Source of the DNA: Thermoanaerobaculia bacterium
GTDB lineage: Bacteria; Acidobacteriota; Thermoanaerobaculia; Multivoradales; UBA5704
Assembly: GCA_036380715.1 (NCBI GenBank)
Contig: DASVEF010000370.1
Span: 7,727 to 71,726 of the forward strand
Reading direction: 5' to 3'
DNA: 64,000 nucleotides
In this document: positions 1,083-14,100 of the stretch, one piece after another
How positions within the stretch are numbered: the stretch's first letter is position 1
Layout of the letters: the number at the start of each line of letters is the position of its first letter
Notes under the pieces: model-generated
Database searches by the model: none
The model's input: only the letters and a program-made list of their open reading frames with translations
What the model was told of the DNA's origin: nothing
Position numbers and translations under genes: made by a program

Positions 1083-2758
1083 GTGCGGACCTCATTCCGG
1101 CCAACGCCGGCGTCAAAAAAAGATGCATGCGCTGGATCGCCCTGGGCGATCGCGACGAGATCCTCGTCCGTGCTGCGGACGAAGAATTGTTGCGGCGTCT
1201 CTCCGCCGCTCCGCGCCCCGAGATAGGCGCGGAACAGCCGTTCGATGATGAGATGGACCTCGCTGCCCGGCACCCGCTTGAGGACCGGCCGGCCGATGGC
1301 CGCGCCGCTCGCCAGGCCGCCGCGCAGGAAGAGGTCGTAGCCCTGGATGCGCTCCCCGTTCGGGCCGCGCTCCCGCAGAGTGGTGCCCTGGAGCCCGATG
1401 TCGCCGATCCAGTGGTGGGCGCAGGCGTGCGGGCAGCCGTCGAGGTTGAGGCGCAGGCCCGAAGCCTCCTCGCCGAAGACCCGCTCCAGGTGCTCCACGA
1501 TCTCCCGCAGCCGCCCCTTGGTCTCGGCGACCGTGTAGTTGCAGAACGGATCGCCGGTGCAGGCGATGCTGGAGCTGCGCAGGGCGTTGACCTGGATCGG
1601 GAACCCCAGCTCCCCCACCTTCCGGACCACCTCGTCCACCCGCTCCCCGGGGATGTGGCTGAGGATGAAGTTCTGCCGGCGGGTCAGGCGGACCTCGCCG
1701 CCCCAGGACTCCGCGAGGTCGGCGACGGCCTTCATGGCGGCGCCGTCCATCAGCCCCAGATAGGCCGGGAACCCGGCGTAGAAGAGGCCGTCCTGGCTCT
1801 GCGGATGGATGCCGGTGTGGTCGTGCTCCTCGGCCGGTGGCGGAGGCGCCGCGCCGTCCCGGAGCCGCCGCCCCAGCTTCTCCTCGACGCGCGCCCGGAG
1901 AGCCTCGGCCCCGAGGTCGTGCACCATGAACTTCAGCCGCGCCCGGGTGCGCGACAGCCGGTACCTCAGATCCTCCCGCCAGACGTCCACGAGAGCCCGC
2001 AGCACCTCCAGCCCTTCCTCCAGCGGCACCCACACCTTCAGGTCGTCGGCCAGCCGGGGCCAGGTCGAGAGCCCGCCGCCGACCGTCACCGCGAAGCCCG
2101 GCCGCCCCTCCACCACAGAGCCGAGGAGGGCGATGCAGTGGATTTCCGGCGCGTTGCACTGGTGGGGGCAGGCCGCGATGGTGATCTTGTGCTTGCGCGG
2201 CAGGTCGGAGTACTCGCGGTTGCGCACGAAGAAGTCCGACGCCTCCTCCAGGAAAGGCTGGACCGCGAACAGCTCCTCCCGCGAGATCCCGGCGACCGGG
2301 CAGCCCGTAATGTTGCGCACGTTGTCGCCGCAGGCCCCGGCGGTGGTCATGCCCGCCGCGGCCACGGTCTCCAGCACCTCGGGGATCTTCTCCAGCTCGA
2401 GCCAGTGGATCTGGATGTTCTGGCGGGTGGTCAGCTCGCCGAAGCCCCGGCCGTAGCGCTCGGAGATCTCGCCCATCGTGCGCAGCTTCCCCGGGGTCAG
2501 CACGCCGCCCGGCACCTTGACCCGCATCATGAAATGGCCGAGCTTGGGCTTGTCGTGGTAGAGGCCGTACCACTGGAGCCGGACGAAGTCCTCCTCCGGC
2601 ACCGCCTCATACCCCGTCGTGATCATGGACGGCAGGTCGTGGATGACGTCGAGCCCCCCCTTCTCGTGCTTGAGGCGCTCGACGAAGTTCCGCTTGCGCA
2701 CCAGCTCCCAGGTGACTTCGCCCTCGGTGGCTGTTCGACTGCTGCCGGTACCGCTCAT
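1079..2758 (-). CDS. sir: sulfite reductase hemoprotein (ferredoxin/NADPH-type, CysI/Sir family; siroheme + 4Fe-4S)
   Basis: 559-aa ORF with nitrite/sulfite reductase ferredoxin-like and hemoprotein domains. Cys cluster motifs CGDNVRNITGCP, CPHQCNA and LDGCPHACAHHWIGDIG. Same operon as cysH. Confidence 0.9.
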   Translation of the reverse strand: MSGTGSSRTATEGEVTWELVRKRNFVERLKHEKGGLDVIHDLPSMITTGYEAVPEEDFVRLQWYGLYHDKPKLGHFMMRVKVPGGVLTPGKLRTMGEISERYGRGFGELTTRQNIQIHWLELEKIPEVLETVAAAGMTTAGACGDNVRNITGCPVAGISREELFAVQPFLEEASDFFVRNREYSDLPRKHKITIAACPHQCNAPEIHCIALLGSVVEGRPGFAVTVGGGLSTWPRLADDLKVWVPLEEGLEVLRALVDVWREDLRYRLSRTRARLKFMVHDLGAEALRARVEEKLGRRLRDGAAPPPPAEEHDHTGIHPQSQDGLFYAGFPAYLGLMDGAAMKAVADLAESWGGEVRLTRRQNFILSHIPGERVDEVVRKVGELGFPIQVNALRSSSIACTGDPFCNYTVAETKGRLREIVEHLERVFGEEASGLRLNLDGCPHACAHHWIGDIGLQGTTLRERGPNGERIQGYDLFLRGGLASGAAIGRPVLKRVPGSEVHLIIERLFRAYLGARSGGETPQQFFVRSTDEDLVAIAQGDPAHASFFDAGVGRNEVRT

Positions 2759-3204
2759 TAATAGACTCCTGGACCGAAACGTTGCGGAGGGCCTGGGCGA
2801 GCGCAGCTCCGCAGGGTAGACCCCTCCTGGGCTCTCGCCGTCGGGCGGAGCGGGTCACGCTAGCTTTGGCTTCGGGTCGGACCTTGGCGGATGCGAACGG
2901 CTACGCCGCTCACACCCGCTTGCTACATATGCAGCCAGGGGTGGGCTGGAACGTGACGGCGGCCATGGCACCGGGCGGAGGTGAGATCAGCGGTGACATT
3001 GGAGATGACTTTAGTCACCTTTACCTCGTTTGTCCAGTCCCCCTGCGGGTTTGCGGGTGACGGAGAGGTGTCAGACCGGTAACAAGGCTACACTTTCCCT
3101 CAGGAGGAAACCGTATGGCCGTGCCGGGTGCGAGAAAGAGGGTCGAAGGGGTCGTCCTGACCGGCTGGGGCTCGTAGCGCAGCCCCCACCGTTAACATAG
3201 GGCC

Positions 3205-4590
3205 ATGATTTCCGCGGCAGGCGAGGGCCCCCGGTTCTGGGACCAGCTCCTCCAGTTCATCGAGGAGGGGCGGGTCGTCCCCATCGTCGGCCCCGATCTC
3301 CTCGTCGCCGATGTCGAGGGACGCTCTGTCCTTCTCTACTCCTTTCTGGCGGAGCGGCTGGCGGAGTATCTGGAGGTCCCCGGGGGCGATCTCCCCGCGG
3401 CGGGCGCGCTGCACGAAGTAGCCTGCCGCTTCCTGAGCCAGGGCGGCCAGATCGAGGACATCTACTCCGGCCTGAAGCGGGTCTTCCCCTCCAGGGAGGC
3501 CTTTCCCATCCCGCAGCCGCTCCTCCAGCTCGCCGGGATCCGGCCGTTCAAGCTGTTCCTGACCACCACGTTCGACCCTCTTCTCCAGCAGGCCCTCGAC
3601 GAGTCTCGCTTTGGCGGGCAGCCGAGGACGCGGGTCTTCGCCTACTCCCCGAACCAGGTGCAGGACCTCGAACAGTCGGTGGACGAAATGGACCGGCCGG
3701 CCGTCTTCCACCTCTTCGGCCGCCTCTCGGCCATGCCGGAGTACGCGGTGACCGACGAGGACACCCTGGAGCTCGTCCATGCCCTGCAGTCCGAGACCCG
3801 GCGCCCCGGCCGGCTCTTCGACGAGCTCGACCGCCGGCAGCTCCTCCTGCTCGGCGGCGGCTTCTCCGACTGGCTGGCCCGCTTCTTCCTGCGCGCCCCC
3901 CGCAGCGAGCGCCTGTGGCTGGTGCGCGGCCGGACGGACATCGTCGCCGATGCCCGCATGCGCGACGACCTTTCCCTGGTCGCCTTTCTCAAGCACTTCA
4001 GCTCCCGCACCCGGATCGCCTCGCAGGGCGCGGTGGAATTCGTGGACGAGCTGCACCGGCGCTGGATCGAGCGGCACCCTCCCCAGGCCGCCGCGGCCGC
4101 GGAGCCGGCGCGCGCGCACGGACCGCTCGATATGCAGCCTGGAGCAGTCTTCTTGAGCTACGCCAGCGAGGACCGTCCCGTGGTGGAGGCGCTCAAGGAG
4201 GAGCTGGAGCGCGCCGGCCTGGACGTCTGGTTCGACCGCGACGCCCTGGAAGGGGGAGACGAGTACGAGAAGAAGATCCGGCGCAACATCGAGAGCTGCT
4301 CGCTGTTCGTCCCCGTGCTCTCGCACCATACCCTGACCTCGCGGCGGCGTTTCTTCCGCCTGGAATGGGACTGGGCCGAGAGGGTCGCCGTCCAGGCTCC
4401 TCCGAACCTGCGCTACATCGTGCCGCTGGCCGTCGACGACGTGGCGCCGGACGACCCGGCGCTGCCGGACCGGTTCAAGCGCCTGCACTGGGAGCGGCTG
4501 GCGCCGGGTCAACCCAATCCCGGCGTGGTCGAAACGCTGAAGCGGTGCTTCCGCGAGTATCAGCGGGCCACGGCCGAGGCCTCCAGGTGA
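3205..4590 (+). CDS. two-domain protein: N-terminal SIR2_2-like (DHS-like NAD-binding fold, non-canonical catalytic positions) + C-terminal TIR domain
   Basis: 461 aa. The C-terminus (VFLSYASEDRPVVEALKEELERAGLDVWFDRDALEGGDEYEKKIRRNIESCSLFVPVLSHH...RLEWDWAE) has the canonical TIR pattern. The N-terminal about 300 aa resembles the SIR2_2 layout (VVPIVGPDLL ~ GAGxS loop; FLTTTFDPLLQQAL ~ ITTNYDxLLE; VFHLFGRL ~ KLHGS) but with substitutions. Followed 13 nt later by the STAND NTPase gene. Confidence 0.75.
   Translation: MISAAGEGPRFWDQLLQFIEEGRVVPIVGPDLLVADVEGRSVLLYSFLAERLAEYLEVPGGDLPAAGALHEVACRFLSQGGQIEDIYSGLKRVFPSREAFPIPQPLLQLAGIRPFKLFLTTTFDPLLQQALDESRFGGQPRTRVFAYSPNQVQDLEQSVDEMDRPAVFHLFGRLSAMPEYAVTDEDTLELVHALQSETRRPGRLFDELDRRQLLLLGGGFSDWLARFFLRAPRSERLWLVRGRTDIVADARMRDDLSLVAFLKHFSSRTRIASQGAVEFVDELHRRWIERHPPQAAAAAEPARAHGPLDMQPGAVFLSYASEDRPVVEALKEELERAGLDVWFDRDALEGGDEYEKKIRRNIESCSLFVPVLSHHTLTSRRRFFRLEWDWAERVAVQAPPNLRYIVPLAVDDVAPDDPALPDRFKRLHWERLAPGQPNPGVVETLKRCFREYQRATAEASR
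4141..4530 (+). other. TIR domain region of the 3205-4590 product
   Basis: FLSYAxED...DVWFD...I...S...VPVLS TIR signature (residues about 313-440). Candidate catalytic Glu in RLEWDWAE. Confidence 0.7.
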
Positions 4591-4603
4591 CCGAGGCTTC
4601 CTG

Positions 4604-7600
4604 ATGGCGGAGCCCCTCCCTCGCGAAGCCGATCCCGGCACGGTCGACGCTGACAATCCCTGGCCCGGGCTGGCCTCTTTCCGGGAGGCGGACCGAGAGC
4701 TCTTCTACGGCCGGGAGACGGAGACCCAGGAGGTGCTGCGGCTGGCGCTGCGCGAGCGGCTGACGGTCCTCTTCGGGCTCTCCGGCCTCGGCAAGACCTC
4801 GCTGCTCCGGGCCGGCCTTTTCCCCCGGCTCCGCGAGCAGAACGTCCTGCCGGTCTACATCCGGCTGGACTTCTCTGAAGGCGGAGGCGCCCGCCGCACC
4901 CTGACCGATCAGATCCGGCAGGCGATCGCCCGCGAGGCCAGGGCCGCCGGCATCGAGGCTCCACCCCTCCCCGAGTCGGAGACGCTCTGGGAGTCCCTGC
5001 ACCGGCAGGAGGCGGAATTCTGGAGCCCGCGCAACCGCATCGTCACGCCGCTCCTCGTCTTCGACCAGTTCGAAGAGGTCTTCACCCTCGGACAGCGGAA
5101 TCCCTCCCGGGCTCGGGAGACCGAGGCGTTCCTCGCCGAGCTGGCGGACCTCTGCGAAGGGTCGCCGCCGGCGAGCGTCCGCGAGCGGCTGGAGGCGGAC
5201 CCGTCCGCGGCCCGCGAGCTCTCCTTCACCCGCCACGCCTACAAGATCCTCCTCAGCCTGCGCGAGGATTTCCTGCCCGAGCTGGAGGGGCTGCGCGGTC
5301 GCATCCGCTCGATCGTCCACAACCGCTTCCGCCTGCGGCGGATGAACGGCGACAACGCCCTGAAAGTAATCACCCAGGCGGGCGGCCACCTGGTCGAGCC
5401 GGACGTCCCCGAGCGGGTGGTCCGCTTCGTCGCCGGCAAGGAGAGCGACGGCGCGGTCCCGCTGGCCGGGCTGGAGATCGAGCCGGCGCTCCTCAGCGTC
5501 GTCTGCCGGGAGCTGAACAACAAGCGCCGCGCCCAGGGGCTGTCCCGCATCACCGCCGGCCTGGTGAGCGGCAACCGCGACGAGATCCTCTCCGAGCTCT
5601 ACGAAAGGAGCGTCGAGGACCTGGGACCGGAGGTCCGCGCCTTCGTCGAGGAGCGCCTGCTGACCCGGTCCGGCTTCCGCGACACGGTGGCCCTGGAGAA
5701 CGCCCTCGAGCTGCCCGGCGTCACCCGCGAGGCCCTGGACAGGCTGACCGACCGCCGGCTCCTGCGCATCGAGGACCGCGGCGGCATGCAGCGCCTGGAG
5801 CTGACCCACGACGTGCTGACCGGGGTCATCCGCAAGAGCCGCGACCTCCGCCGGGAGCGAGAGGCCGAGAGAAAGCTCCGGCGCAGTTGGCTGATCATCG
5901 CGCTCCTCGCCCTCGTCCTGGTCGGCGTTTTCACCCTCGCCGCTTGGGCACTCTGGGCAGAAAGGCGGGCGGAGCAGGCCCTGGCGGCCTCGGACGCCGG
6001 GAGGGCCTTGAGCCTTCGGGACAGCCGGCCCTCTCACGCCCTCGCCTACCTGGCCCGGGCGCTGCGCGCAGACCCGGACAACATCCCGGCGCAGAGCGTC
6101 CTCAGCGACCTCCTCCTCGGCAGAGCCTGGCCGAGGCCCGTCGCCGAGCTGCGGCTCGCGGACGCCGATTCGGTCCACCTCAGCGAGGATGGACGGTTCT
6201 TCGCCGCGGTCTCAGAGGACTGGACGGTCCGCGTCTGGGACACCCGGACGCTCCAGAAGACGGGAACGGTCCGCCCGGAAGACGCCGCCGAATCCCTCGA
6301 ATTGAGCCGGGATGGCCGGCGCATGCTGATCCTCTCCCCCGCCTTGGCGCGGCTCTGGGACGTTCGCACCGGCCAGCCTCTCGGACGCTTTCCGCTGAGA
6401 GAAGAGAGATCCCACGCGCTGCTCAGCCCGGACGGCCAGTGGATCGCCCTGGTTTACGGCGGCCACACCCTCGTCCTTCGCCACATCGACACGGGCAAGG
6501 AGCGCGAGATAAGGCTCCCCGTAGATCCCGCCATGATCCCCTACGGCGGCGGCTTCGAGGGTTTCGGGTTCAGCCCCGATAGCCGGAGGTTCTTCGCCAC
6601 CGACTCGCTGGCGGTCCTTCTCTGGGACGTCGGGAGCGGCCGCTCGATTCCCGGGCCGCCGGCAGGAATGATCCTTCACGTGGTTTTCAGCCCCGACAGC
6701 CGCCGCCTCCTGGTCACGGGGAACGAGCTGGTGGTTTGGGACACCGTCGTTGGCGGACCGTCCGAAGGGACCTTCGGTGGCGACGCGAACCGAGCATGGC
6801 TCAGCCCAAGAGGCGGGAGGCTTGCGACCTATCATGCGCCCGAAGCCGCGCTCCGGATCTGGAGCATCCGCGATCCGCGGGGACCCTTGACGATCTCGAA
6901 GCCCAACCTGCTCCACGCTCAATTCAGCCACGACGGCCAGCTCCTCCTGACCACGTCCCAGGAGGGGGTGGAGCTGTGGGACGCCGACACCGGCCATCCG
7001 GTCAGCCAACCGCTCTGCGATTGCCTGCAAGGCCGCTTCCTCGAAGGCACCCGCCAGGTCGTCACGAGCGACGACAGCGGCATCCTCAGGGTCTGGAGCT
7101 CTGAGCCCGCGCGGACCGGCACGGAGCTCCTCTACGATTCTGAGAGCCTGTACCCTGTCTTTAGCCAGGACGGGAGCCGCCTCGCGTTGCAATCGCGGGA
7201 TGGCGTGGTCCATTTCTGGGACACCACCGCCGTCCGGTCCGTGGAATCCCCGGTCCGCAACGTCGATCTCCGGCTCAGCGCGGACGGCCGCTTTCTGCTG
7301 GAGCAGCGGAAAAGCACGGTACAGCTCTGGGATGCCCGCACCGGCCGTCGGACCGGACAGCCTTTGACACTGCCCGGCGACCGATACCAACTCCGCCCGG
7401 ACAAGGATCTCGATTCCGAGAGGGAGGTCCTGGGCATCCGGAGGGGCTCCACAGTCCAGCTCTGGAGCTTCGCCACAGGCCGGCAGGTGGGAGAGGTCCA
7501 ACAGAGCCAGGAGGTCACGGACCTCGCGTTCAGCCCTGGCGGCGACCGGCTCGTCACCGTCTCCCCGCAAGGCGTGATCCGCACCTGGGACTCGCGGACG

Positions 7601-8461
7601 GGCGAGCCGCTCGACCTCGTCTACCACGAGAGCCCCGTCGTCTCCTTCGACCTCAGCCAGGATGGCGAGCGGATTGCGACGGGCACCCGGAGGGGGCTCG
7701 CAAGGATCTGGGACCTCCGGTCCGGCGAGCTGCTCGTCGGTCCTCTCCGCCACCGGTATCCGGTGAGCTTCGTCAAATTCCAGCCCGCAGGCCGCCTGCT
7801 CCTGACCCGTGCGCAGAACACTCTCAGGCTCTGGGACACCCGGACGGGGCAGCCCACCGGCGGAGCGCTCGATCAAAAGGGGGGCATCGGGTTCGCTCAG
7901 CTCAGCCCGGACGGCTCCCGCATCCTGGTCCAGACGATCGGCGAGTCCCCCCTCCTGCTGGACGCCCAGACGGGGCAGCTCCTCGTCAGAGCTTCTCTCC
8001 CTGTTCCCGACTCGACTTTTTACGAGGCGCGGCTCAGCCCGACCGGCGAGCTCCTGTGGGTTGCCCTTCTCGACCGGGTCCACGTCTTCGCCGTCCCCCT
8101 CTTTCCGAAGAAGGACCGGGAGCTCCTCGCCCGCTGGGCCGAGGCCGTCGGCGGCTGGACCCTCGACGGGGAAGGCCGGCTGGTGGAAATTCGCGATCAG
8201 CTCGCGCGCCTCAACGGCTTGCGCCGGGAAACCGCGAAAGCTCCTCTCGGCCAGCTTGGGGTTGCCTCCCTGATCCGCTGGTTCCTCTCCGACCCGCGGA
8301 CGCGCACGATGTCCCCCGTCCTGGACCTCACCGTCGAGCAATCCATCCGCCGCCATCTCGAAGCCGGAGACTGGCGCGGAGCCGCGGAAGCCTTCCCCGG
8401 CCACCCGTTGCTCCTCGAGCATCGGCCCCCGCCGGTTCCCATTACTCCGGACGAGCCCTGA
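4604..8461 (+). CDS. STAND-class P-loop NTPase (nSTAND/NACHT-like) with internal transmembrane helix and about 14 WD40 repeats (two predicted 7-bladed propellers)
   Basis: 1285 aa. N-terminal NPWPGLASFREADRELFYGRE motif typical of cyanobacterial-type STAND-WD40 NTPases. Walker A GLSGLGKTSLL, Walker B LLVFDQFEEVF. Hydrophobic helix SWLIIALLALVLVGVFTLAAWALW flanked by RKLRRS / ERRAEQ. Then 14 WD-type repeats (VRVWDTRT, RLWDVRTG, LLWDVGSG, VVWDTVVG, ELWDADTG, HFWDTTAV, QLWDARTG, RTWDSRTG, RIWDLRSG, RLWDTRTG ...). Confidence 0.85.
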   Translation: MAEPLPREADPGTVDADNPWPGLASFREADRELFYGRETETQEVLRLALRERLTVLFGLSGLGKTSLLRAGLFPRLREQNVLPVYIRLDFSEGGGARRTLTDQIRQAIAREARAAGIEAPPLPESETLWESLHRQEAEFWSPRNRIVTPLLVFDQFEEVFTLGQRNPSRARETEAFLAELADLCEGSPPASVRERLEADPSAARELSFTRHAYKILLSLREDFLPELEGLRGRIRSIVHNRFRLRRMNGDNALKVITQAGGHLVEPDVPERVVRFVAGKESDGAVPLAGLEIEPALLSVVCRELNNKRRAQGLSRITAGLVSGNRDEILSELYERSVEDLGPEVRAFVEERLLTRSGFRDTVALENALELPGVTREALDRLTDRRLLRIEDRGGMQRLELTHDVLTGVIRKSRDLRREREAERKLRRSWLIIALLALVLVGVFTLAAWALWAERRAEQALAASDAGRALSLRDSRPSHALAYLARALRADPDNIPAQSVLSDLLLGRAWPRPVAELRLADADSVHLSEDGRFFAAVSEDWTVRVWDTRTLQKTGTVRPEDAAESLELSRDGRRMLILSPALARLWDVRTGQPLGRFPLREERSHALLSPDGQWIALVYGGHTLVLRHIDTGKEREIRLPVDPAMIPYGGGFEGFGFSPDSRRFFATDSLAVLLWDVGSGRSIPGPPAGMILHVVFSPDSRRLLVTGNELVVWDTVVGGPSEGTFGGDANRAWLSPRGGRLATYHAPEAALRIWSIRDPRGPLTISKPNLLHAQFSHDGQLLLTTSQEGVELWDADTGHPVSQPLCDCLQGRFLEGTRQVVTSDDSGILRVWSSEPARTGTELLYDSESLYPVFSQDGSRLALQSRDGVVHFWDTTAVRSVESPVRNVDLRLSADGRFLLEQRKSTVQLWDARTGRRTGQPLTLPGDRYQLRPDKDLDSEREVLGIRRGSTVQLWSFATGRQVGEVQQSQEVTDLAFSPGGDRLVTVSPQGVIRTWDSRTGEPLDLVYHESPVVSFDLSQDGERIATGTRRGLARIWDLRSGELLVGPLRHRYPVSFVKFQPAGRLLLTRAQNTLRLWDTRTGQPTGGALDQKGGIGFAQLSPDGSRILVQTIGESPLLLDAQTGQLLVRASLPVPDSTFYEARLSPTGELLWVALLDRVHVFAVPLFPKKDRELLARWAEAVGGWTLDGEGRLVEIRDQLARLNGLRRETAKAPLGQLGVASLIRWFLSDPRTRTMSPVLDLTVEQSIRRHLEAGDWRGAAEAFPGHPLLLEHRPPPVPITPDEP
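5887..5958 (+). other. predicted single transmembrane helix inside the STAND NTPase (between NTPase/helical module and WD40 region)
   Basis: 24 consecutive hydrophobic residues with positive-inside flank (RKLRRS). Prediction by eye only. Confidence 0.55.
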
Positions 8462-8541
8462 CGCGGTTCTCGAATCCCGGTGCTAGACTTGTCATCGAAC
8501 CCCATGCCCGGGTGGCCTTCCGCGGGCGAGGAGGATATCGT

Positions 8542-9288
8542 ATGGGCGCAATTCCACTGCAACGCGATATCGACTATCCGGAATCCGACGGACAGCCCAT
8601 GGCAGAGACCGCCCTCCACCGCCGAGAGATGGTGGACCTCACCGCCGCGCTGGACCATTGGTACCTCGACGCGGCGGATGTGGCGGTGGAGAGCAATCTC
8701 TTCCTCTACTACGTCGAAGGCAACCCGCGGGCGGTGGTCTCCCCCGATGTCTTTGTTGCGCTCGGCGTGCCCAAGAGGGAGCGCAGGATCTACAAGCTTT
8801 GGGAGGAAGGCCGCGCCCCGTCCATGGTCATCGAGGTGACCTCGCTCTCGACCAAGGACGAGGACCTCTACGGCAAGAAGAGCTGTTACGAGAGGCTCGG
8901 CGTGCCGGAGTACTTCCTGCACGACCCTTGCGGGGAGTATCTGAGCCCGCCGCTCCTGGGCTATCGCCTGGTGCGTGGCCAATACCGCCTGATGAAGCCG
9001 GCAGCCGACGGCTCGCTGATCAGCAAGGTCACGGGGCTGACGCTCCAGCCCGAGGGGCAGAGGTTGCGTCTGGTGGATACTGCCACTGGAAAGCTGCTGT
9101 CGTGGGTCGCAGAGTCCCAGGCGGCCGAAGACCGGGAGGAGGAGGCGCAGCGGGCATGGCAGGAGGCGGAAGTACGAGCGGCTCAGGCCGAAGCCCGGGC
9201 AGCCCAGGAAGCCCAGGCGCGGCGGCAGGCCGAGGAGGAGTTGGCCCGTCTGCGCCGCGAGCTCGCCAAATGGGATTCGGCCGGCTGA
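8542..9288 (+). CDS. Uma2-family (DUF820) PD-(D/E)XK-like endonuclease with C-terminal coiled-coil
   Basis: 248 aa from ATG with a GAGGA RBS. Uma2 motifs PDVFVALGVP...MVIEVTSLST...DLYGKKSCYERLGVPEY. C-terminal Ala/Glu/Arg-rich heptad-like tail. Confidence 0.8.
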   Translation: MGAIPLQRDIDYPESDGQPMAETALHRREMVDLTAALDHWYLDAADVAVESNLFLYYVEGNPRAVVSPDVFVALGVPKRERRIYKLWEEGRAPSMVIEVTSLSTKDEDLYGKKSCYERLGVPEYFLHDPCGEYLSPPLLGYRLVRGQYRLMKPAADGSLISKVTGLTLQPEGQRLRLVDTATGKLLSWVAESQAAEDREEEAQRAWQEAEVRAAQAEARAAQEAQARRQAEEELARLRRELAKWDSAG

Positions 9289-9368: not shown

Positions 9369-10985
9369 ATGGCCGACCGTCCCTCATCCCCCTGGACCCC
9401 ACTGAGGCAGCCGCTCTACCGGTCGTTGTGGATCGCCGCCGTGGCCTCCAACATCGGCACCTGGCTGCAGAGCGTCGGGGCGTCGTGGATGATGACCACG
9501 CTGTCGGCTTCGGCCACGATGGTGGCGCTGGTGCAGGCGGCGACCAGCCTTCCCATGTTCCTGCTGTCGCTGCCCGCCGGGGCTCTCGCCGACGTGCTCG
9601 ACCGCCGGCGGCTGCTCCTGTTCACCGAGATCTGGATGGCCCTCAGCGCGGCAGGGCTCGGACTGCTGACCCTCGCCGGGGCGGCCGGCCCGTGGACGCT
9701 GCTGGTCTTCACCTTCCTGCTCGGGCTGGGGACCGCGCTCACCGCTCCCGCCTGGCAGGCGATCGTCCCCGAGATCGTGCCGCGGGAGGACCTGCCCGCC
9801 GCCATCACTCTCCAGAGCATCGGATTCAACATCGCCCGCGCCATCGGCCCGGCCATCGGCGGCCTACTCGTGGCGGCGACGGGGCCGGCGGTGACTTTCC
9901 TGCTCAACGCCGCGTCGTTCCTCGGCGTGCTGCTGGTGGTCTACCGCTGGAAGCGCCCGGCCATGGAGTCGGTCCTCCCGGGCGAGCGCATCCTCGGAGC
10001 GATGAGCACCGGACTGCGCTACGTGCGCCACGCGCCCGAGGTCCTCGCCGTGATCGCGCGGGGGAGCACGTTCGTCCTCTGCGCCAGCTCCCTGTGGGCG
10101 CTGCTGCCGGTGGTCGCCAGCACCGAGCTGAGGCAGGGACCGGCGGGGTACGGCCTGCTCCTCGCCTCTCTCGGCGTCGGAGCGGTCTCGGGCGCGATGG
10201 TCCTGCCGCGGCTGCGCCGGGGAGGAGAGGGCTCGATGGACGGCATCGTGGCCGTGGCGACCCTGGTCTTCGCGGGCGCCACGGTCGCCCTCGGATCGCT
10301 GCGCAGCTTTCCCCTTCTCTGCCTGGCGCTGGTCTTCGCGGGCGGCGCCTGGCTCTGCCTGCTCTCCAGCCTGAACGTGGCGATCCAGACGGTGGTCCCC
10401 TCCTGGGTGCGCGGCCGGGCCTTGTCGGTCTACATGCTGATCTTCTTCGGCGGCCTCGCGGGCGGCAGCGCGCTCTGGGGAGCGGTGGCCGACCACGCGG
10501 GCACCTCCCGCGCGCTCTGGATCTCCGCGGCCGGCATGATCGCCGGCCTCGCCGCCACCTGGCGCATCCACCTGCGCTCGGGCGAAGGGCTCAACCTGGC
10601 CCCGTCGCGGCAATGGCCCGCACCGCTGGCCAGCCACGACCTGGAGCTCGACCGCGGGCCGGTCCTGGTGTCCATCCGCTACCAGATCGATCCCGAGAAG
10701 GCTTCCGAGTTCGCGGCGGCCATGCGGGAGCTGCGCCGCATCCGCCTGCGCGACGGCGCCCTGCAATGGGGTCTCTTCACCGTCGCCGAAACTCCGGGCG
10801 CCTACGCCGAGGTCTTCCTCGTCCGCTCCTGGATCGAGCATCTGCGCCAGCACGAGCGGGTCACCGTCGCCGACGAGGAGATCCGGCACCGCGCCGGCTC
10901 TTTCCACGTCGGCGAAGAGCCTCCCGTGGTCCGGCACCTCATCGCCGAGCCCATGATCCGGGTTAGAATTCCTGGGGCAGATTGA
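9369..10985 (+). CDS. MFS transporter (EntS/YbdA-like) fused to a C-terminal ABM-like (antibiotic biosynthesis monooxygenase / Dabb) domain
   Basis: 538 aa. About 12 TM helices, with MFS motif LADVLDRRRLLL after TM2. The C-terminal about 125 aa (PVLVSIRYQIDPEKASEFAAAMRELRRIRLRDGALQWGLFTVAETPGAYAEVFLVRSWIEHLRQHERVTVAD) fits the ferredoxin-like ABM pattern. Confidence 0.85.
   Translation: MADRPSSPWTPLRQPLYRSLWIAAVASNIGTWLQSVGASWMMTTLSASATMVALVQAATSLPMFLLSLPAGALADVLDRRRLLLFTEIWMALSAAGLGLLTLAGAAGPWTLLVFTFLLGLGTALTAPAWQAIVPEIVPREDLPAAITLQSIGFNIARAIGPAIGGLLVAATGPAVTFLLNAASFLGVLLVVYRWKRPAMESVLPGERILGAMSTGLRYVRHAPEVLAVIARGSTFVLCASSLWALLPVVASTELRQGPAGYGLLLASLGVGAVSGAMVLPRLRRGGEGSMDGIVAVATLVFAGATVALGSLRSFPLLCLALVFAGGAWLCLLSSLNVAIQTVVPSWVRGRALSVYMLIFFGGLAGGSALWGAVADHAGTSRALWISAAGMIAGLAATWRIHLRSGEGLNLAPSRQWPAPLASHDLELDRGPVLVSIRYQIDPEKASEFAAAMRELRRIRLRDGALQWGLFTVAETPGAYAEVFLVRSWIEHLRQHERVTVADEEIRHRAGSFHVGEEPPVVRHLIAEPMIRVRIPGAD
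10596..10985 (+). other. ABM-like soluble domain at the C-terminus of the MFS transporter
   Basis: Pattern hhhhxhxYxhxPExxxxFxxxxxxL...G...xxLhxx...PxxYxEhxxWxSxExHxxH. Confidence 0.5.
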
Positions 10986-11018
10986 AAGCAGGGTGGAGGT
11001 GAGGGTCCGAACGGCCGA

Positions 11019-11369
11019 TTTATATACTCCGGCCGAGAGCTTGTATAGACCCGCCCCTTGGAACCGCTTCAGGAACCGCAGGTTTATATAGGGAGAGGGG
11101 TGTACCTATATAGACTGTCCGTCTCCCTATATAGACGCGCAGCTTTCTTATATAGACCGGAGCCTGCGCAAAGGCGGGGGACCTCCCGTTCAGACTGTCC
11201 GAACCCTCTCCGAAAGCTCTCCGGATCGCCGCCCTATATAAAAAGAGCGCTCATCTATATAGATCCTGAGCTCCGAGACGCTTCCCCGCCGCCTCTCTAT
11301 ATATTTTGACGGCTCCCCCATATGAACCGGCCACCTTCCTATATAATCAGGCTGCAAAAGTATATAGAG
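11019..11369. repeat. AT-rich intergenic array: about 12 copies of a C(C/T)TATATAG(A) palindromic core positioned at 21-bp multiples
   Basis: Cores end near 11027, 11048, 11091, 11113, 11134, 11155, 11241, 11262, 11304, 11346 and 11367 (gaps 21, 43, 22, 21, 21, 86, 21, 42, 42, 21), with a degenerate copy near 11324. Lies in a 70% GC background between the MFS gene and vapB. Spurious ORFs across it encode YI-rich junk. Confidence 0.8.
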
Positions 11370-11419
11370 TGGCCGTCCGGAAACCTTGGGCGGGCCTTTC
11401 AAAAGGGAGGAGGAGACGC

Positions 11420-11629
11420 ATGCTCACCAGTATGGATCTGGACGAGGAGCTGTTCAAGAAGGCGTGGAATCTTTCGAGCCAGCGGACCAAGAAGGGCGTC
11501 GTGGAAGAGGCGTTGCGCATCTACGTCCGCCTCCACGAGCAGGCCCAGGTGCGTAGTCTGCGGGGCAAGCTGGCGTGGCTGGGCGATCTCGACCAGCAGA
11601 GGAAGCGGCGCCGTGCAAGCTCTCGTTGA
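11420..11629 (+). CDS. vapB: type II antitoxin, VapB-like (DUF2191-type)
   Basis: 69 aa starting MLTSMDLDEELFKKAWNLSSQRTKKGVVEEALRIYVR. Strong RBS GGGAGGAGGAG. Its 3' end overlaps the downstream PIN toxin gene. Confidence 0.7.
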   Translation: MLTSMDLDEELFKKAWNLSSQRTKKGVVEEALRIYVRLHEQAQVRSLRGKLAWLGDLDQQRKRRRASSR

Positions 11630-12005
11630 CGCTTCGGTCTGGATCGACTATTTCACCGGCGAGGCCACGCCGCAGACCGACCTCCTGGACTCCCTGCTCG
11701 GGAAGGCGGCCCTCACCGTGGCCGACCTGACGCTCGCCGAGGTCCTCTACGGCATTCCGGACGAGCGCAGCCGGCGCCTGGCGGCCGACGCGCTGACCAA
11801 GTTCTGGCTGGTCGAGGTCCGCGGGATCGACCTGGCCCAGAAGAGCGCGGTCAACTATCACACCCTGCGCGTCCGCGGCATCGAGGTCACGACCACGGAG
11901 TGCGAGATCGCCACGTTCTGCCTGGAGAACGGCTTCTCTCTCCTCCACTCCAGCCCGGGCTACGAGCCGTTCGAGACGTACCTGGGGCTCAAGGGGGTGC
12001 GGTAA
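11613..12005 (+). CDS. vapC: PIN-domain ribonuclease toxin VapC
   Basis: GTG start. PIN signature LVDASVWIDYF...LAADALTKFWLVEVRGIDL...HTLRVRGIEVTTTECEIATFCLENGFSLLH. Confidence 0.85.
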   Translation: MQALVDASVWIDYFTGEATPQTDLLDSLLGKAALTVADLTLAEVLYGIPDERSRRLAADALTKFWLVEVRGIDLAQKSAVNYHTLRVRGIEVTTTECEIATFCLENGFSLLHSSPGYEPFETYLGLKGVR

Positions 12006-12032: not shown

Positions 12033-12569
12033 ATGAAAGCACAGCTCGTTCTGGCCTGCTTCGTCCTCGCCGCGCCCGCTCTGGTGAAGGCCGAAGATCC
12101 GCCGCCCTGCCCTCTCCACGCCCAGCACCAGCAGGAGGCTCAGAGCCCGGGGCACGACCACCATGCCGGGGTCGACGCCCGGGGCGACAAGGTCATGGGC
12201 TTCGAGCACACCCGCACGACCCACCACTTCCTGCTGAAGCCGGACGGCGGCGTGATCCAGGTCGAGGCCAAGGACTTGGCGGACCGCGAGAGCATCGTCA
12301 AGACCCGCCACCACCTCGCAGACATCGCCGAAAAGTTCACGGCCGGCGACTTCTCCATGCCGTTCGCCATCCACGACCGGGTCCTCCCCGGCGTGCCGGA
12401 GATGACCCGCCTCAAAGGAGAGCTACGCTTCCGCTACGAAGAGACCGAGCGCGGCGCCCGCGTCCACATCGCCACGGAGAGCCCCGAGGCCCGCGAAGCC
12501 GTCCACGCCTTCCTGCGCGCACAGATCGAGGATCACCGCACGGGCGATCCGCTCACTCCGACTCCGTAG
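12033..12569 (+). CDS. secreted hypothetical protein with His-rich N-terminal region
   Basis: Signal peptide MKAQLVLACFVLAAPALVKA. Mature N-terminus PPPCPLHAQHQQEAQSPGHDHHAGVD...HTRTTHHF. No family recognised. Confidence 0.6.
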   Translation: MKAQLVLACFVLAAPALVKAEDPPPCPLHAQHQQEAQSPGHDHHAGVDARGDKVMGFEHTRTTHHFLLKPDGGVIQVEAKDLADRESIVKTRHHLADIAEKFTAGDFSMPFAIHDRVLPGVPEMTRLKGELRFRYEETERGARVHIATESPEAREAVHAFLRAQIEDHRTGDPLTPTP

Positions 12570-12594: not shown

Positions 12595-14100
12595 ATGATG
12601 AAGCTGTACCCGCGTCTCCTCTGCGTTCTCGCAGCCTGCCTCCTGTCCGCCCCGGTCTCCGCAGCGCCGCAGGGCCATGCCGCCGCTCCCATCGTCAACG
12701 GGAACCTCGAGGGAAACCTGCCGTCCGTGGTCGCCGTGTTCGTGGACAGCGAGCTTTGCACGGGTACCCTCATCGGCTGCCAGACCGTGCTCACCGCGGC
12801 GCACTGCATCTGCAGCGATCAGCTCACGGGATCAGCCTGCGCACAGACCCCCGGCCTCCTCGACCCCTCGCGGGTCGCGGTCTTCTCGCAGCACGCCGGG
12901 GTTCTGGACGTCGCGAGCGTGGCGGTGCATCCGGACTATCACTTCCAGGTCCGGGGCGACCTCGCGATCCTGCGCCTGGCAACTCCGGTGGCGGGAATCG
13001 CGCCGACTCCCCTCAACCTCACCGGGCGGGTGGCCCCCGGCGTCCAGGGAGTCATCGCCGGGTTCGGGCGATCGAGCAGGACGGCCGACGACTTCGGGCT
13101 GAAGCGCTCCGGAAGAGTGACGACCGCCGCCTGCACGCACGCGCCGGCCGCCACCCACCTCTGCTGGAACTTCGAAGCTCCCATCGGTCCGGTCGGGCTG
13201 GACAGCACCGCCTGCCAGGGCGACTCCGGCGGTCCGCTGCTGGTCGAAACGGGCGGCGTCGCCCGCCTCGCCGGAGTCACGTCCGGAGACGAGCCCGGAA
13301 CGTGCGCGCCGCCCGACCAGGTCTTCGCCGCCGATGTCTATGTGGACCGCGCCTGGATCCTGGAGCGGGCGGGAGCCGACGCCACGGCCACGAGCTGCGG
13401 GACGCTCCCGCCGGCCGGCTCCGCCGAGGCTCCGGTGGTCGCTGTGAACGGGGACCTCGCGCGGACAGACTCCGGGGACCGCCATGTCCTCCAGGTCCCG
13501 CCGGGCGCGGACCTGCTGCGCGTGGCGCTCAACGGCGACTTCGGCACCGCGAACGCCAACTTCCAGCTCTACGTCAAGCCGGGCGCGCCGCCGACGCCAG
13601 AGGACTTCCTCTGCGAGAGCGAGATGCCGGGGCCCTATGAATTTTGTGAATTGCCGTCGCCGGTCGCCGGGGAGTGGCACGTGCTCGTCCACCGCCAGGG
13701 CGGCTCGGGGGCGTACCAGCTCACCGCGACCACGTTCGGGGTCTCTTCGTCGAGTTGCGTGCCTGACGCCACGACGCTGTGCCTGAACAACGGCCGCTTC
13801 CGCGTCCGCGCCACCTGGCGGCTCCGAAACGGCCAATCCGGAGCCGGCAACATGATCCCCCTGACCTCCGACACCGGCTACTTCTGGTTCTTCGACCCCG
13901 CCAACGTGGAGGTCGTCGTCAAGGTCCTCAACGCCTGCGCCCGCGGGAACTACTGGGTCTTCGCCAGCGGCCTGACCAACGTCCAGGTTACCCTCACCGT
14001 GACCGACACCCAGAGCGGCGTGACCCGGACTTACCAGAACCCGCAGGGGACGCCCTTCCAGCCGATCCAGGACACCGGGGCGTTTCCGACCTGTCCGTGA
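12595..14100 (+). CDS. secreted trypsin-like serine protease (S1 family) with pre-peptidase C-terminal (PPC) domain and extra C-terminal beta-rich domain
   Basis: Signal peptide. IVNG start of the mature trypsin fold. Catalytic triad contexts TAAHC, DLAILRL and GDSGGPL. PPC-like segment LQVPPGADLLRVALNGDFGTANANFQLYVKPGAPP...GEWHVLVHRQGGSGAYQLT. Confidence 0.85.
   Translation: MMKLYPRLLCVLAACLLSAPVSAAPQGHAAAPIVNGNLEGNLPSVVAVFVDSELCTGTLIGCQTVLTAAHCICSDQLTGSACAQTPGLLDPSRVAVFSQHAGVLDVASVAVHPDYHFQVRGDLAILRLATPVAGIAPTPLNLTGRVAPGVQGVIAGFGRSSRTADDFGLKRSGRVTTAACTHAPAATHLCWNFEAPIGPVGLDSTACQGDSGGPLLVETGGVARLAGVTSGDEPGTCAPPDQVFAADVYVDRAWILERAGADATATSCGTLPPAGSAEAPVVAVNGDLARTDSGDRHVLQVPPGADLLRVALNGDFGTANANFQLYVKPGAPPTPEDFLCESEMPGPYEFCELPSPVAGEWHVLVHRQGGSGAYQLTATTFGVSSSSCVPDATTLCLNNGRFRVRATWRLRNGQSGAGNMIPLTSDTGYFWFFDPANVEVVVKVLNACARGNYWVFASGLTNVQVTLTVTDTQSGVTRTYQNPQGTPFQPIQDTGAFPTCP

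Follow-up and report, generated by a model that had tools for sequence, protein, structure and literature searches.

The locus lies on the forward strand of a 64,000-nucleotide stretch of DNA from a Thermoanaerobaculia bacterium (hereafter the window) and comprises two adjacent genes, both of which stand where the original prediction had placed them. Gene 1 (3205..4590; ORF list, Pfam and AF2) encodes a protein of 461 residues in which a SIR2-like domain, probably a pseudo-enzyme, precedes a TIR domain. A Thermoanaerobaculia MAG encodes the identical protein (100%) under the annotation 'TIR domain-containing protein'. AF2 models gene 1 with confidence (pLDDT 88), and its product is predicted to be soluble and cytoplasmic. 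Gene 2 (4604..8461; ORF list, Pfam and homologues) encodes 1285 residues arranged as an nSTAND1 NTPase, a single transmembrane (TM) helix, a double beta-propeller that is predicted to be an ectodomain, and a C-terminal tail. Direct reading of the sequence puts the TGA stop of gene 1 at 4588-4590 and leaves the 13 nt spacer that had been proposed (4591..4603), within which a Shine-Dalgarno-like GAGG motif at 4593-4596 stands 7 nt ahead of the gene 2 ATG at 4604.

The two genes are strictly paired across genomes

The two-gene operon is real and very widely conserved. Across 79 loci from species-representative genomes of at least 10 phyla, an nSTAND1 gene lies directly downstream of the SIR2-TIR gene in 78, the sole exception being a sequence that ends 20 nt past gene 1, and in the reverse direction a SIR2_2+TIR_2 gene was found directly upstream of all seven gene 2 homologues checked. 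Stop and start codons overlap by 4 nt in 56 of 77 loci, and the pairwise identities of gene 1 and gene 2 correlate (r=0.89). The two-gene locus that had been proposed is thus borne out as one functional unit. One locus (L002) carries two tandem pairs, and several MAGs contain two or three paralogous pairs. A search across loci for a conserved third gene near the pair returned none, and a sister architecture, with the TIR domain fused in cis to nSTAND1, is present at locus L085.

Gene 1 joins a SIR2-like domain without catalytic residues to a TIR domain

The N-terminal part of gene 1 (residues ~1-295, 3205..4089) adopts a SIR2 fold. Pfam SIR2_2 matches its core at residues 117-234 (nt 3553-3906; E=9.6e-10, 39.1 bits against a cutoff of 24.5), the best structural matches by Foldseek are ThsA entries 8btp and 6lhx (E 4e-10 to 1e-9), followed by KomC/HAM-SIR2 9xvc (TMt 0.72), Avs5 9jap and DSR2, and a gene 1 profile run against PDB sequences also finds ThsA (E=0.0025). 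The fold and motif order of the SIR2 call are therefore upheld; its catalytic residues are not. In ThsA, the N112A substitution abolishes both NAD+ binding and cleavage, and H152A abolishes activity (PMC7272460). Residue-level HMMER alignment to 6lhx places T122 (codon 3568..3570; 'TTTFD' here against 'TTNYD' in ThsA) at the position of Asn112, and F171 (codon 3715..3717; 'FHLFG' against 'YKMHG') at that of His152. Among 77 species representatives the first position holds T in 62, S in ten, C in three, and G and A in one each, but never N; the second holds F in 53, L in 20 and M in three, together 76 of the 77, with Y in the remaining one, and never H. In the nucleotide-binding loop, where the canonical motif is GAGxS, D or E stands in place of the second Gly in the family alignment. 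Because the equivalents of the ThsA catalytic Asn and His are absent from every member, the SIR2-like domain is probably a non-catalytic pseudo-enzyme, and the label 'SIR2-like/TIR effector', with its implication of two NADase domains, is not supported.

The TIR signature claimed for the C-terminus is supported. The domain spans residues 314-461 (4144..4587), with Pfam TIR_2 matching residues 315-432 (E=1.9e-21, 77.2 bits against a cutoff of 28). PdTIR 3h16 (3e-7), AbTIR and SARM1 are found among PDB sequences, 3h16 and the SPARTA TIR by Foldseek, and ThsB profiles of PADLOC-DB match this part of the protein. AbTIR-like motifs (FLSYASED, WFD and GD) are retained. A Glu-Trp pair, E387-W388 (codons 4363..4368), opens TIR helix alpha-C and is invariant in the family alignment even at 30% identity, with E387, W388 and A391 each conserved in 76 of 77 species representatives. 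E387 is a candidate catalytic Glu, although more than one catalytic register can be drawn. In the HMMER alignments W388 falls on the active-site Trp of PdTIR and SARM1, so that the canonical Glu would be residue 392, which is E in gene 1 but mostly I, L, V, F or A across the family. Since the canonical WxxxE position is not conserved, catalysis by the TIR domain would depend on an alternative register through E387.

This ambiguity leaves room for an inverted assignment, in which the NADase activity belongs to the SIR2-like domain, by way of non-canonical residues such as H169, and the TIR domain has no catalytic role but serves in assembly or as an adaptor. The SIR2 fold is well preserved, H169, close to F171, is found in 58 of 77 representatives, and by their titles the matched ThsA, Avs5 and KomC entries are activated helical or filament assemblies of SIR2. 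However, H169 is not a conserved catalytic residue, because Q replaces it in 13 of the 77, and the inverted assignment has further to contend with the loss of the Asn that ThsA requires for NAD+ binding, of the His and of the second loop Gly, as well as with the invariance of E387-W388. We consider it very unlikely.

Gene 2 is an nSTAND1 NTPase with one predicted membrane-spanning helix

Residues 19-423 of gene 2 (4658..5872) form a STAND-class NTPase module made up of a P-loop domain, a helical domain and a winged helix. The module matches nSTAND1 (PF20703; E=2.6e-33, 116.6 bits against a cutoff of 27.1), so that the STAND protein left without a family in the original prediction belongs to a named family of known kind. 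An AF2 model of residues 1-469 (pLDDT 89, pTM 0.82) has the NBD-HD-WHD arrangement with a beta-hairpin at 387-400, and its NTPase is matched by Foldseek to Orc1/Cdc6, the archaeal ATPases 2qen and 2fna, the NLRs WRR4A and NLRP2/7, and Avs4. Both nucleotide-binding motifs that had been pointed out are conserved. Walker A (GLSGLGKT, residues 58-65, 4775..4798) has its G.SGLGK[ST] pattern in 59 of 64 scanned homologues, and in the alignment of gene 2 homologues S60, G61, L62, G63 and K64 are invariant, as are D154, Q155, E157 and E158 of the hhhhDQFEE-type Walker B (LLVFDQFEE, residues 150-158, 5051..5077). Their conservation points to an active NTPase switch.

The single TM helix expected from the earlier reading lies at residues 428-452 (5885..5959). 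Its Kyte-Doolittle mean over a 19-residue window is 2.76, and in the AF2 model it is part of one continuous helix (residues 404-468) that emerges from the winged-helix domain; a profile search gave an anti-sigma factor model as a weak match to this region. A helix occupies the same position in nearly all complete homologues. Eight K/R residues fall within the 15 residues before the gene 2 helix and three within the 15 after it, and the N-terminal side is the richer in K/R in 61 of 64 homologues (mean 6.5 against 3.2). On hydropathy and the positive-inside rule, an N-in topology is predicted, with the NTPase in the cytoplasm and the C-terminal domain outside it.

A swappable domain follows the helix

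In the window the helix is followed by a WD40/PD40-type beta-propeller region, predicted to be extracytoplasmic (residues 520-1175, 6161..8128), and a tail (residues 1176-1285, 8129..8458) with no recognisable domain and no match in Pfam or NCBIfam. Many WD40 and beta-propeller models of Pfam match residues ~520-1110. A bootstrapped repeat HMM finds 15 blades plus one degenerate unit at about residues 810-845; the double propeller that had been proposed is retained, and the count rises from about 14 to about 16 blades, which fits two propellers. A search of the region for DNA-level tandem repeats found none.

The WD40 array, offered earlier as a defining feature, is only one of at least six interchangeable ectodomains. 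Among homologues the region after the helix is a WD40, FGE-sulfatase, DM9 lectin, TPR, L7/L12-CTD or unannotated domain, with PD40-type repeats in 31 of 65. Close relatives are 65-79% identical in gene 1 and the NTPase against 29-51% in the ectodomain. The region is thus a fast-evolving, swappable cassette on a constant cytoplasmic chassis.

The nature of these cassettes bears on whether the helix spans the membrane at all. Should it only tether the protein, or not cross the membrane, the C-terminal repeats would be cytoplasmic and gene 2 would be a membrane-anchored, Avs/bNACHT-like sensor of phage proteins in the cytosol. WD40, TPR and L7/L12-CTD domains usually occur in the cytoplasm, and for the L7/L12-CTD variant (L019, P0203) an inside location is the more plausible; TPR and L7/L12-CTD would be unusual outside the cell, which counts against the N-in topology. 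A helix of 19-25 hydrophobic residues with a KD mean of 2-3 and charged flanks would nevertheless have to place those flanks on opposite sides if it crosses the membrane, its K/R asymmetry is N-in in all but three of the homologues scored, and its position is conserved though the sequence that follows is swapped. PD40-type repeats, FGE-sulfatase and DM9 are common among extracytoplasmic or lectin modules. A cytosolic sensor is therefore quite unlikely.

Genomic context is mixed

The 'defence-island flavour' ascribed to the window is weak, with the pair preceded by CysH and sulfite reductase and followed by Uma2, an MFS_3 transporter, VapB/PIN and a secreted trypsin-like protease. Three further loci (L081, L083 and L084) likewise have housekeeping neighbours. 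Elsewhere, SLATT, patatin and a second nSTAND1 lie near the pair in Tunturibacter, where a gene for a Pkinase-FGE-sulfatase receptor kinase also adjoins it, pYEATS-TIR and TIR-nSTAND1 are neighbours at L085, and a CAP12-type TIR and DUF4062 lie near another locus. Nearest-neighbour ORFs include the PADLOC families DpdF, Cas8e, PsyrT and 2TM effectors, with any single family matching at most 3 of 140 such ORFs. Defence context is thus inconsistent, being only occasional across loci. Searches of phage records, viral contigs and mobilisable plasmids found no homologues. The hosts are soil and sediment bacteria.

This context, with many loci among housekeeping genes, soil or sediment hosts, the adjoining receptor kinase and no phage, virus or mobile-plasmid association found, would suit a module for transmembrane signalling outside immunity, in the manner of those receptor Ser/Thr kinases or anti-sigma factors whose ectodomains vary. 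Its ectodomain would sense an environmental or envelope cue (a polysaccharide, a nutrient polymer or cell-cell contact), for which lectin-type domains such as FGE and DM9 are well suited, and the TIR domain would make an NAD-derived second messenger or act as a scaffold, adjusting physiology and not killing the cell. Against it, the closest solved or profile-matched relatives of both gene 1 domains include several immune or cell-death NADases (ThsA, Avs5, DSR2, AbTIR, SARM1 and SPARTA); sensor swapping, fast divergence and paralogous copies resemble immune receptor repertoires; the pair is found at some loci in the company of other TIR, SLATT, patatin or CBASS-type genes; and no downstream signal receiver is conserved beside the pair. 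We regard such a module as possible, if unlikely.

A model for the pair

Our preferred reading, to which we give a probability of roughly 0.55, is that the pair is an outside-in, membrane-spanning STAND ('NLR-like') switch that recruits a putative TIR NADase and serves in conflict or immunity. According to this model, gene 2 would reside in the inner membrane, the nSTAND1 module on the cytoplasmic side and the variable C-terminal domain (two WD40-type propellers in the window) on the other, exposed to the periplasm or the exterior. When the ectodomain binds a ligand, the single TM helix, which runs on from the winged-helix domain, would carry the signal inwards and thereby license the NTPase to oligomerise, dependent on NTP, at the inner membrane face. 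The oligomer would then recruit and cluster the gene 1 protein, for which the catalytically dead SIR2-like domain may provide a docking or oligomerisation scaffold, and the clustered TIR domains would cleave NAD+, either depleting it or generating a nucleotide signal, with growth arrest or death as the outcome; the triggers would be phage, foreign cells or other invaders that are detected at the envelope. The phage-defence role, the outside-in activation and the NADase activity of the TIR domain are our inferences. So is physical contact between the two proteins, which lacks support from precedent because hhalign finds no adaptor domain shared between them (probability 0.4%).

Comparison with known systems

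The specific pair is absent from PADLOC-DB v2.0, and the conflict-system and STAND literature examined contained no description of a SIR2-like+TIR/TM-nSTAND1 pair, in agreement with the original prediction that it was undescribed. It appears to be a variant, so far undescribed, of the switches for immunity or cell death in bacteria. The kind of system is already known, because a role has been predicted for the nSTAND1 family in conflict systems whose effectors are encoded in trans (Kaur, Iyer, Burroughs, Aravind, eLife 2021, PMC8195603). As described in the portions of that paper used here, these nSTAND1 or 'STAND NTPase-FGS' counter-invader systems, which are predicted only, share with the pair the NTPase family (PF20703), variable C-terminal sensors including FGE-sulfatase and repeat domains, the possibility of an effector such as TIR on a separate protein, and that of several diversified copies per genome. 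Their trans effectors are coupled through a shared EAD or bDLD adaptor, or the effector is fused to the NTPase N-terminus, whereas in gene 2 no N-terminal domain precedes the NTPase, which begins at residue 19, and no domain is common to both proteins. The same descriptions mention no conserved TM helix separating the NTPase from the sensor, and no SIR2-like+TIR partner.

Type I Thoeris (ThsA SIR2-SLOG with ThsB TIR) uses the same two domain families, and ThsA is the best structural match. There, however, each of the two domains has a protein of its own, the signal comes from the TIR protein, and an active, SLOG-gated SIR2 (N112/H152) is the effector, while in the present pair a single chain carries both domains and lacks the SIR2 catalytic residues, Pfam detects no SLOG or Macro sensor, and the partner is a STAND NTPase. 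Avs5/SIR2-STAND and TIR-STAND proteins (Avs, bNACHT, Rst_TIR-NLR) follow the same logic of sensor, STAND oligomerisation and NADase effector, and gene 1 and gene 2 structurally match the Avs5 SIR2 domain and the Avs4 NTPase, respectively. These single-protein STANDs are cytoplasmic, sense phage proteins inside the cell and carry a catalytically competent effector in cis, in contrast to the separate effector protein, dead SIR2 domain and predicted trans-membrane placement of the sensor found here.

By analogy only, the pair also recalls animal Toll-like receptors with TIR adaptors, in which a repeat ectodomain, a single TM helix and a cytoplasmic platform recruit TIR proteins; those receptors carry their own TIR domain, have no NTPase and share no homology with the pair except TIR. 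In predicted topology (a cytoplasmic N-terminal module, one TM helix and a large C-terminal ectodomain) gene 2 matches two bacterial groups that have beta-propeller or FGE ectodomains, receptor Ser/Thr kinases and anti-sigma factors, but its output would pass through a STAND NTPase and a TIR protein instead of a kinase or a sigma-factor partner.

Results

Two open reading frames make up the locus, one at 3205..4590 (+) encoding a protein of 461 aa (gene 1) and one at 4604..8461 (+) encoding a protein of 1285 aa (gene 2), in a window with a G+C content of ~70%. Both frames and the 13-nt spacer between them were recovered from the re-read sequence exactly as first described, and a GAGG motif stands 7 nt before the gene 2 ATG. 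A Thermoanaerobaculia (Acidobacteriota) MAG encodes a protein 100% identical to that of gene 1. The SIR2-like and TIR domains of gene 1, already named in the original prediction, are recognised by Pfam as SIR2_2 (aa 117-234, E=9.6e-10, 39.1 bits against a cutoff of 24.5) and TIR_2 (aa 315-432, E=1.9e-21, 77.2 bits), and Foldseek agrees, the AF2 model having a pLDDT of 88. Gene 2, for which a STAND-class NTPase with Walker A and B motifs had been proposed, matches nSTAND1 (PF20703) at aa 19-423 (E=2.6e-33, 116.6 bits against a cutoff of 27.1; model positions 1-358 of 379), as do the homologues scanned, likewise above threshold. The AF2 model of gene 2 aa 1-469 (pLDDT 89, pTM 0.82) has the NBD-HD-WHD order of P-loop domain, helical domain and winged helix, its nearest Foldseek matches being Orc1/Cdc6, archaeal STAND-like ATPases, plant and animal NLRs and Avs4, and both Walker motifs are invariant across homologues. 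The gene 2 NTPase is thus a bona fide nSTAND1 member. NCBIfam returned nothing above threshold for either protein, and a promoter and terminator scan of 2700-8700 nothing informative.

Beyond nSTAND1, gene 2 matches many WD40/propeller Pfam models. The array of about 14 WD repeats originally predicted is present, although a self-built repeat HMM counts 15 blades plus one degenerate unit, and it is therefore likely that the repeats form two propellers. An array with high internal conservation between its WD repeats, of the kind seen in fungal NLRs, was rejected, there being no DNA tandem repeats.

Gene 1 and gene 2 form a module that is both obligate and widespread. With one genome taken per GTDB species, a pattern scan yielded 351 gene 1 relatives. 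The best 79 loci were examined and span Acidobacteriota, Pseudomonadota (Methylococcales, Nitrosomonas and others), Nitrospira, Gemmatimonadota, Verrucomicrobiota, Bacteroidota, Myxococcota, Thermodesulfobacteriota and Geobacter, Fibrobacteres and Binatia. Directly downstream on the same strand, 78 of these 79 loci have a gene 2 NTPase homologue, and in the remaining one the contig stops 20 nt past gene 1. The pairing is kept in the reverse direction too, a SIR2_2+TIR_2 gene being found directly upstream of gene 2 homologues in 7/7 cases. Among these are the cultured strains Tunturibacter psychrotolerans (pair at 5,202,002-5,205,303 of CP132942.1) and Paraburkholderia caribensis MBA4 (NZ_CP012748.1, about 376-380 kb), of which the second has a gene 1 homologue only 30% identical to the window protein; Nitrosomonas sp. 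Nm84 is a further cultured host. Stop and start codons overlap by 4 nt in 56/77 loci, a count that took the candidate start nearest the gene 1 stop and so favours small gaps, but which cannot in this way yield an identical −4 in 56 loci. Across 2,628 pairs, identity in gene 1 correlates with identity in gene 2 (r=0.89). Several MAGs carry two or three paralogous pairs, and in one locus with two tandem pairs (L002) every NTPase has its own SIR2-TIR gene. An exhaustive search of 1.84 billion cluster representatives found 886 clusters at E<=1e-30, the best 150 of which are nearly all 430-480 aa long.

A conserved third gene was sought by all-against-all clustering of 802 flanking ORFs and rejected, as no cluster occurs in more than 7/78 loci; the commonest are extra nSTAND1 paralogues. 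MAP3K_TRAF_bd/TPR-S, which adjoins the pair in two cultured strains, was likewise dismissed as a third component, being present in only 2/82 loci. Two homologues have unusual architectures. In P0375 (1006 aa) a partial nSTAND1 and SIR2_2+TIR_2 share a single ORF, which may be either a Rosetta-stone fusion or a tandem-pair artefact and is given little weight; P0252 (615 aa) reads TIR_2 + SIR2_2 + TIR_2.

The N-terminal ~290 residues of gene 1 adopt a defence-type sirtuin fold in Foldseek comparisons (target-normalised TM-score to sirtuins up to 0.72), with ThsA, KomC/HAM-SIR2, Avs5 and DSR2 as the best PDB matches. The fold of the NADase-type SIR2 domain originally predicted is therefore retained, whereas its catalytic residues are not. 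In a profile alignment to ThsA of type I Thoeris (6lhx), 'YWTTNYD' falls on 'FLTTTFD' and 'VYKMHGD' on 'VFHLFGR', placing T122 and F171 opposite N112 and H152 (numbering counted along the 6lhx alignment). None of 77 species representatives has N at position 122, where T/S/C/G/A are found, or H at position 171, which is F/L/M/Y; in the Paraburkholderia homologue of 30% identity, too, neither residue stands at the equivalent position. H169 is not invariant, being Q in 13/77. In the nucleotide-binding loop, the position that we take to be the second glycine of the canonical GAGxS motif is D or E across the 77 representatives. The N112A and H152A substitutions in ThsA each abolish both NAD+ binding and cleavage (PMC7272460). 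Because the Asn and His that ThsA requires are absent family-wide, the SIR2-like domain is most probably a pseudo-enzyme kept for a structural role. Docking to the NTPase or driving assembly is plausible, the latter because the titles of the matched ThsA, Avs5 and KomC entries describe helical or filament assemblies. Such family-wide loss of catalysis with the fold kept points to a sirtuin-derived adaptor or scaffold, a role for which we found no description among defence sirtuins in the literature searched.

The C-terminal domain of gene 1 certainly has a TIR fold: PdTIR, AbTIR and SARM1 are its sequence matches in the PDB, Foldseek finds 3h16, the N-terminal motifs resemble those of AbTIR, PdTIR and TcpB, and FLSYASED, D344 and G351-D352 are conserved. 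The register of the catalytic glutamate, expected in helix alpha-C, is less straightforward. E387-W388-x-x-A391 is invariant in the family (E387 in 76/77), and HMMER pairs W388 with the Trp in the active sites of PdTIR and SARM1, which would put the canonical WxxxE Glu at 392; the SARM1, AbTir, TcpB and PdTIR references in one of these alignments are partly approximate. Residue 392 is E in gene 1 and mostly I/L/V/F/A across the family, and so is not a conserved catalytic residue. HMM alignments to PdTIR, TcpB and SARM1 give conflicting registers, and the C-terminal two-thirds of the TIR domain, when searched against the PDB, returned noise only. We lean towards an alternative register, F383-x-x-x-E387, which needs only a 2-residue loop insertion and agrees with the conservation pattern. 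After E387 come a hydrophobic residue, a small one at +4 and again a hydrophobic one at +5, as in the 'EIVTAL' of SARM1 and the 'ELDGLV' of AbTIR.

The single positive-inside hydrophobic helix of the original prediction was found, by AF2 and hydropathy, as segment 428-452 within an unbroken helix (404-468) that leaves the winged helix. Although gene 2 homologues range from about 650 to 1750 aa in length, nearly all complete ones have a single hydrophobic helix at ~420-490. Its N-terminal flank is richer in K/R than its C-terminal flank in 61/64 (mean 6.5 vs 3.2), and this bias predicts an N-in, C-out single pass with the NTPase cytoplasmic and the C-terminal domain extracytoplasmic.

What lies beyond the helix, here called the ectodomain, varies. 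It consists of WD40/PD40 propellers in 39/65 loci and elsewhere of FGE-sulfatase, TPR, L7/L12 C-terminal domain or DM9 repeats. DM9 (PF11901, E=1.9e-25), present in the homologues P0123, P0125, P0127 and P0142, is a lectin-type module of invertebrate pattern-recognition proteins. FGE-sulfatase has a C-type-lectin fold, according to PMC8195603, and together the FGE/C-lectin fold, DM9 and propeller repertoire suggests recognition of glycans or surface structures. The L7/L12 C-terminal domain (PF00542, E about 1e-24) follows the helix at 12727-13302 (+) of locus L019 and at aa 582-648 of P0203; it is odd for an extracytoplasmic site, and hints either that the topology of that subclass is to be questioned or that it is a decoy-type sensor. 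Most short gene 2 variants have an unannotated ~130-aa domain in place of these modules, which may be an undescribed sensor domain. It is carried by P0131, P0167, P0143 and most hits of ~640-680 aa, in the columns past the helix of the gene 2 homologue alignment (A6), with a consensus ...ADHPTFQN...GWGCL...DPTK... and only a sub-threshold similarity to pYEATS (E=0.002). Between close relatives, the ectodomain is 29-51% identical, against 65-79% for gene 1 and the NTPase. A swapped, fast-diverging ectodomain combined with paralogous pairs is what one would expect of a receptor repertoire under diversifying pressure.

The genomic surroundings of the pair are mixed. The defence-island flavour that the original prediction saw in the window is weak: sulfate-assimilation genes lie upstream, and Uma2, an MFS transporter, VapBC and a protease downstream; other loci have plainly housekeeping neighbours. 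The Uma2-family endonuclease ORF (8056-9288, 410 aa; domain aa 169-324) probably has its true start near 8530, and the gene would then not overlap the end of gene 2. The VapB/PIN toxin-antitoxin pair (11306-12005) lies in a stretch (10500-12000) with a G+C content of 0.61-0.62 against about 0.70 around it, which suggests a small inserted segment. Further on, 12033-12569 encodes a 178-aa protein that has a hydrophobic N-terminus and matches nothing in Pfam, and 12595-14100 a trypsin-like protease with a PPC domain that is probably secreted.

Some loci have a different character. In the cultured acidobacterium Tunturibacter psychrotolerans (L080; CP132942.1, record 5193318-5215303) the pair stands beside a second nSTAND1, as nSTAND1-WD40, with LSDAT_prok-SLATT, patatin, two MAP3K_TRAF_bd/TPR-S genes, and a Pkinase-FGE-sulfatase gene accompanied by an ECF sigma factor, a cluster that has the look of a conflict island. 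A second locus (L085, 432-9118) has a TIR_2 protein, a pYEATS-TIR protein and a cis-fused TIR_2-nSTAND1-phosphoesterase beside the pair, and a third (L086, 728-6964) a CAP12-PCTIR_TIR protein together with a member of the DUF4062 family, recently reported as a TIR-like NADase. Nearest-neighbour matches elsewhere include DpdF, Cas8e, PsyrT and 2TM effectors. A phage or mobile-element origin was rejected, with no match in 50,697 phage records and none in IMG/VR contigs; plasmids gave a single match, to a non-mobilisable chromid of 2.5 Mb.

Three lines suggest that the pair has a conflict or immune role: the proteins to which both gene 1 domains are related, its receptor-like evolution, and some of these neighbourhoods. 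That it serves instead in non-immune signalling is a serious alternative, given the housekeeping neighbours in the window and at other loci and the lack of any phage or mobile-element association in the records searched. As context is inconsistent and this association was not found, we infer a defence role rather than assert it. Were the function one of ordinary signalling, the pair would still be an uncharacterised and abundant module of soil bacteria.

Discussion

Gene 1 and gene 2 are best read as a two-component STAND switch. According to this model, a ligand would bind the gene 2 ectodomain outside the cell and the signal would pass through the rigid WHD-TM helix, whereupon the NTPase would oligomerise and the TIR protein encoded by gene 1 would be recruited and clustered, with NAD+ cleavage as the output. 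The cis-fused TIR-nSTAND1 protein that adjoins one pair (L085) supports TIR as a natural output of the nSTAND1 family.

A more far-reaching interpretation, to which we give a probability of roughly one in three, is that the pair represents the first recognised class of bacterial transmembrane NLR-like (STAND) outside-in immune or non-self receptors, with interchangeable ectodomains and a TIR protein docked by a pseudo-sirtuin. Such receptors would survey the periplasm or cell surface via lectin, propeller or repeat ectodomains and signal through a membrane-proximal NTPase oligomer to the docked TIR protein. If so, they would combine TLR-like logic with an NLR chassis in hundreds of species and at least 10 phyla, a bacterial counterpart to TLR-style outside-in signalling; and if the sensor does lie across the membrane and the effector is a separate, paired TIR protein, the STAND/NLR-like paradigm would extend to the cell envelope. 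In the available text of the literature compared, bacterial STAND/NLR-like immune sensors are treated as cytoplasmic. The idea of periplasmic sensing nevertheless has precedent, since some DGR-diversified STAND/CLec targets have been predicted to face the periplasm (Doré et al., 2024).

As a catalogued system the pair is absent from PADLOC-DB v2.0.0: gene 2 matches no model, and gene 1 matches via its TIR part only (Aga_TIR, PDC-S66, SAVED_TIR and ThsB, from unrelated systems). Type I Thoeris was rejected, as no SLOG or Macro domain was found by Pfam and SIR2 and TIR are on one chain; moreover, in contrast to Thoeris, the SIR2 domain appears inactive and the partner in 78/79 loci is an nSTAND1 protein and not a separate TIR-only ThsB. 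Avs and bNACHT were rejected because the effector is encoded in trans and the sensor is predicted to lie across the membrane. We found no description of the pair in the available text of PMC8195603, PMC7159879, PMC10907252 and preprint 10.64898/2025.12.03.692087, nor in the main text of PMC13581612, the supplements of which could list the clade. A recent bacterial STAND census discusses FGE and WD40 sensors, its main text containing neither the pair nor the membrane-spanning arrangement.

The module was originally judged undescribed, and this holds for the pair in the literature compared but not for its NTPase family: nSTAND1 was named by Kaur et al. (2021), who predicted 'STAND NTPase-FGS' conflict systems with effectors either fused or coupled in trans via shared EAD or bDLD adaptors (PMC8195603). 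An EAD adaptor shared by gene 1 and gene 2 was rejected (hhalign probability 0.4%); neither protein has an EAD or Death-like Pfam match, and the NTPase starts at residue 19. As far as those systems are set out there, the present pair differs in having no shared adaptor, whereas EAD/bDLD is on both proteins in theirs, in a conserved TM helix between switch and sensor, and in a dedicated SIR2-like+TIR partner whose sirtuin domain is without catalytic residues. The module is thus a variant within the nSTAND1 kind and not a categorically new system, well-defined and abundant, and its interest lies in the conserved, predicted outside-in architecture and the pseudo-sirtuin partner.
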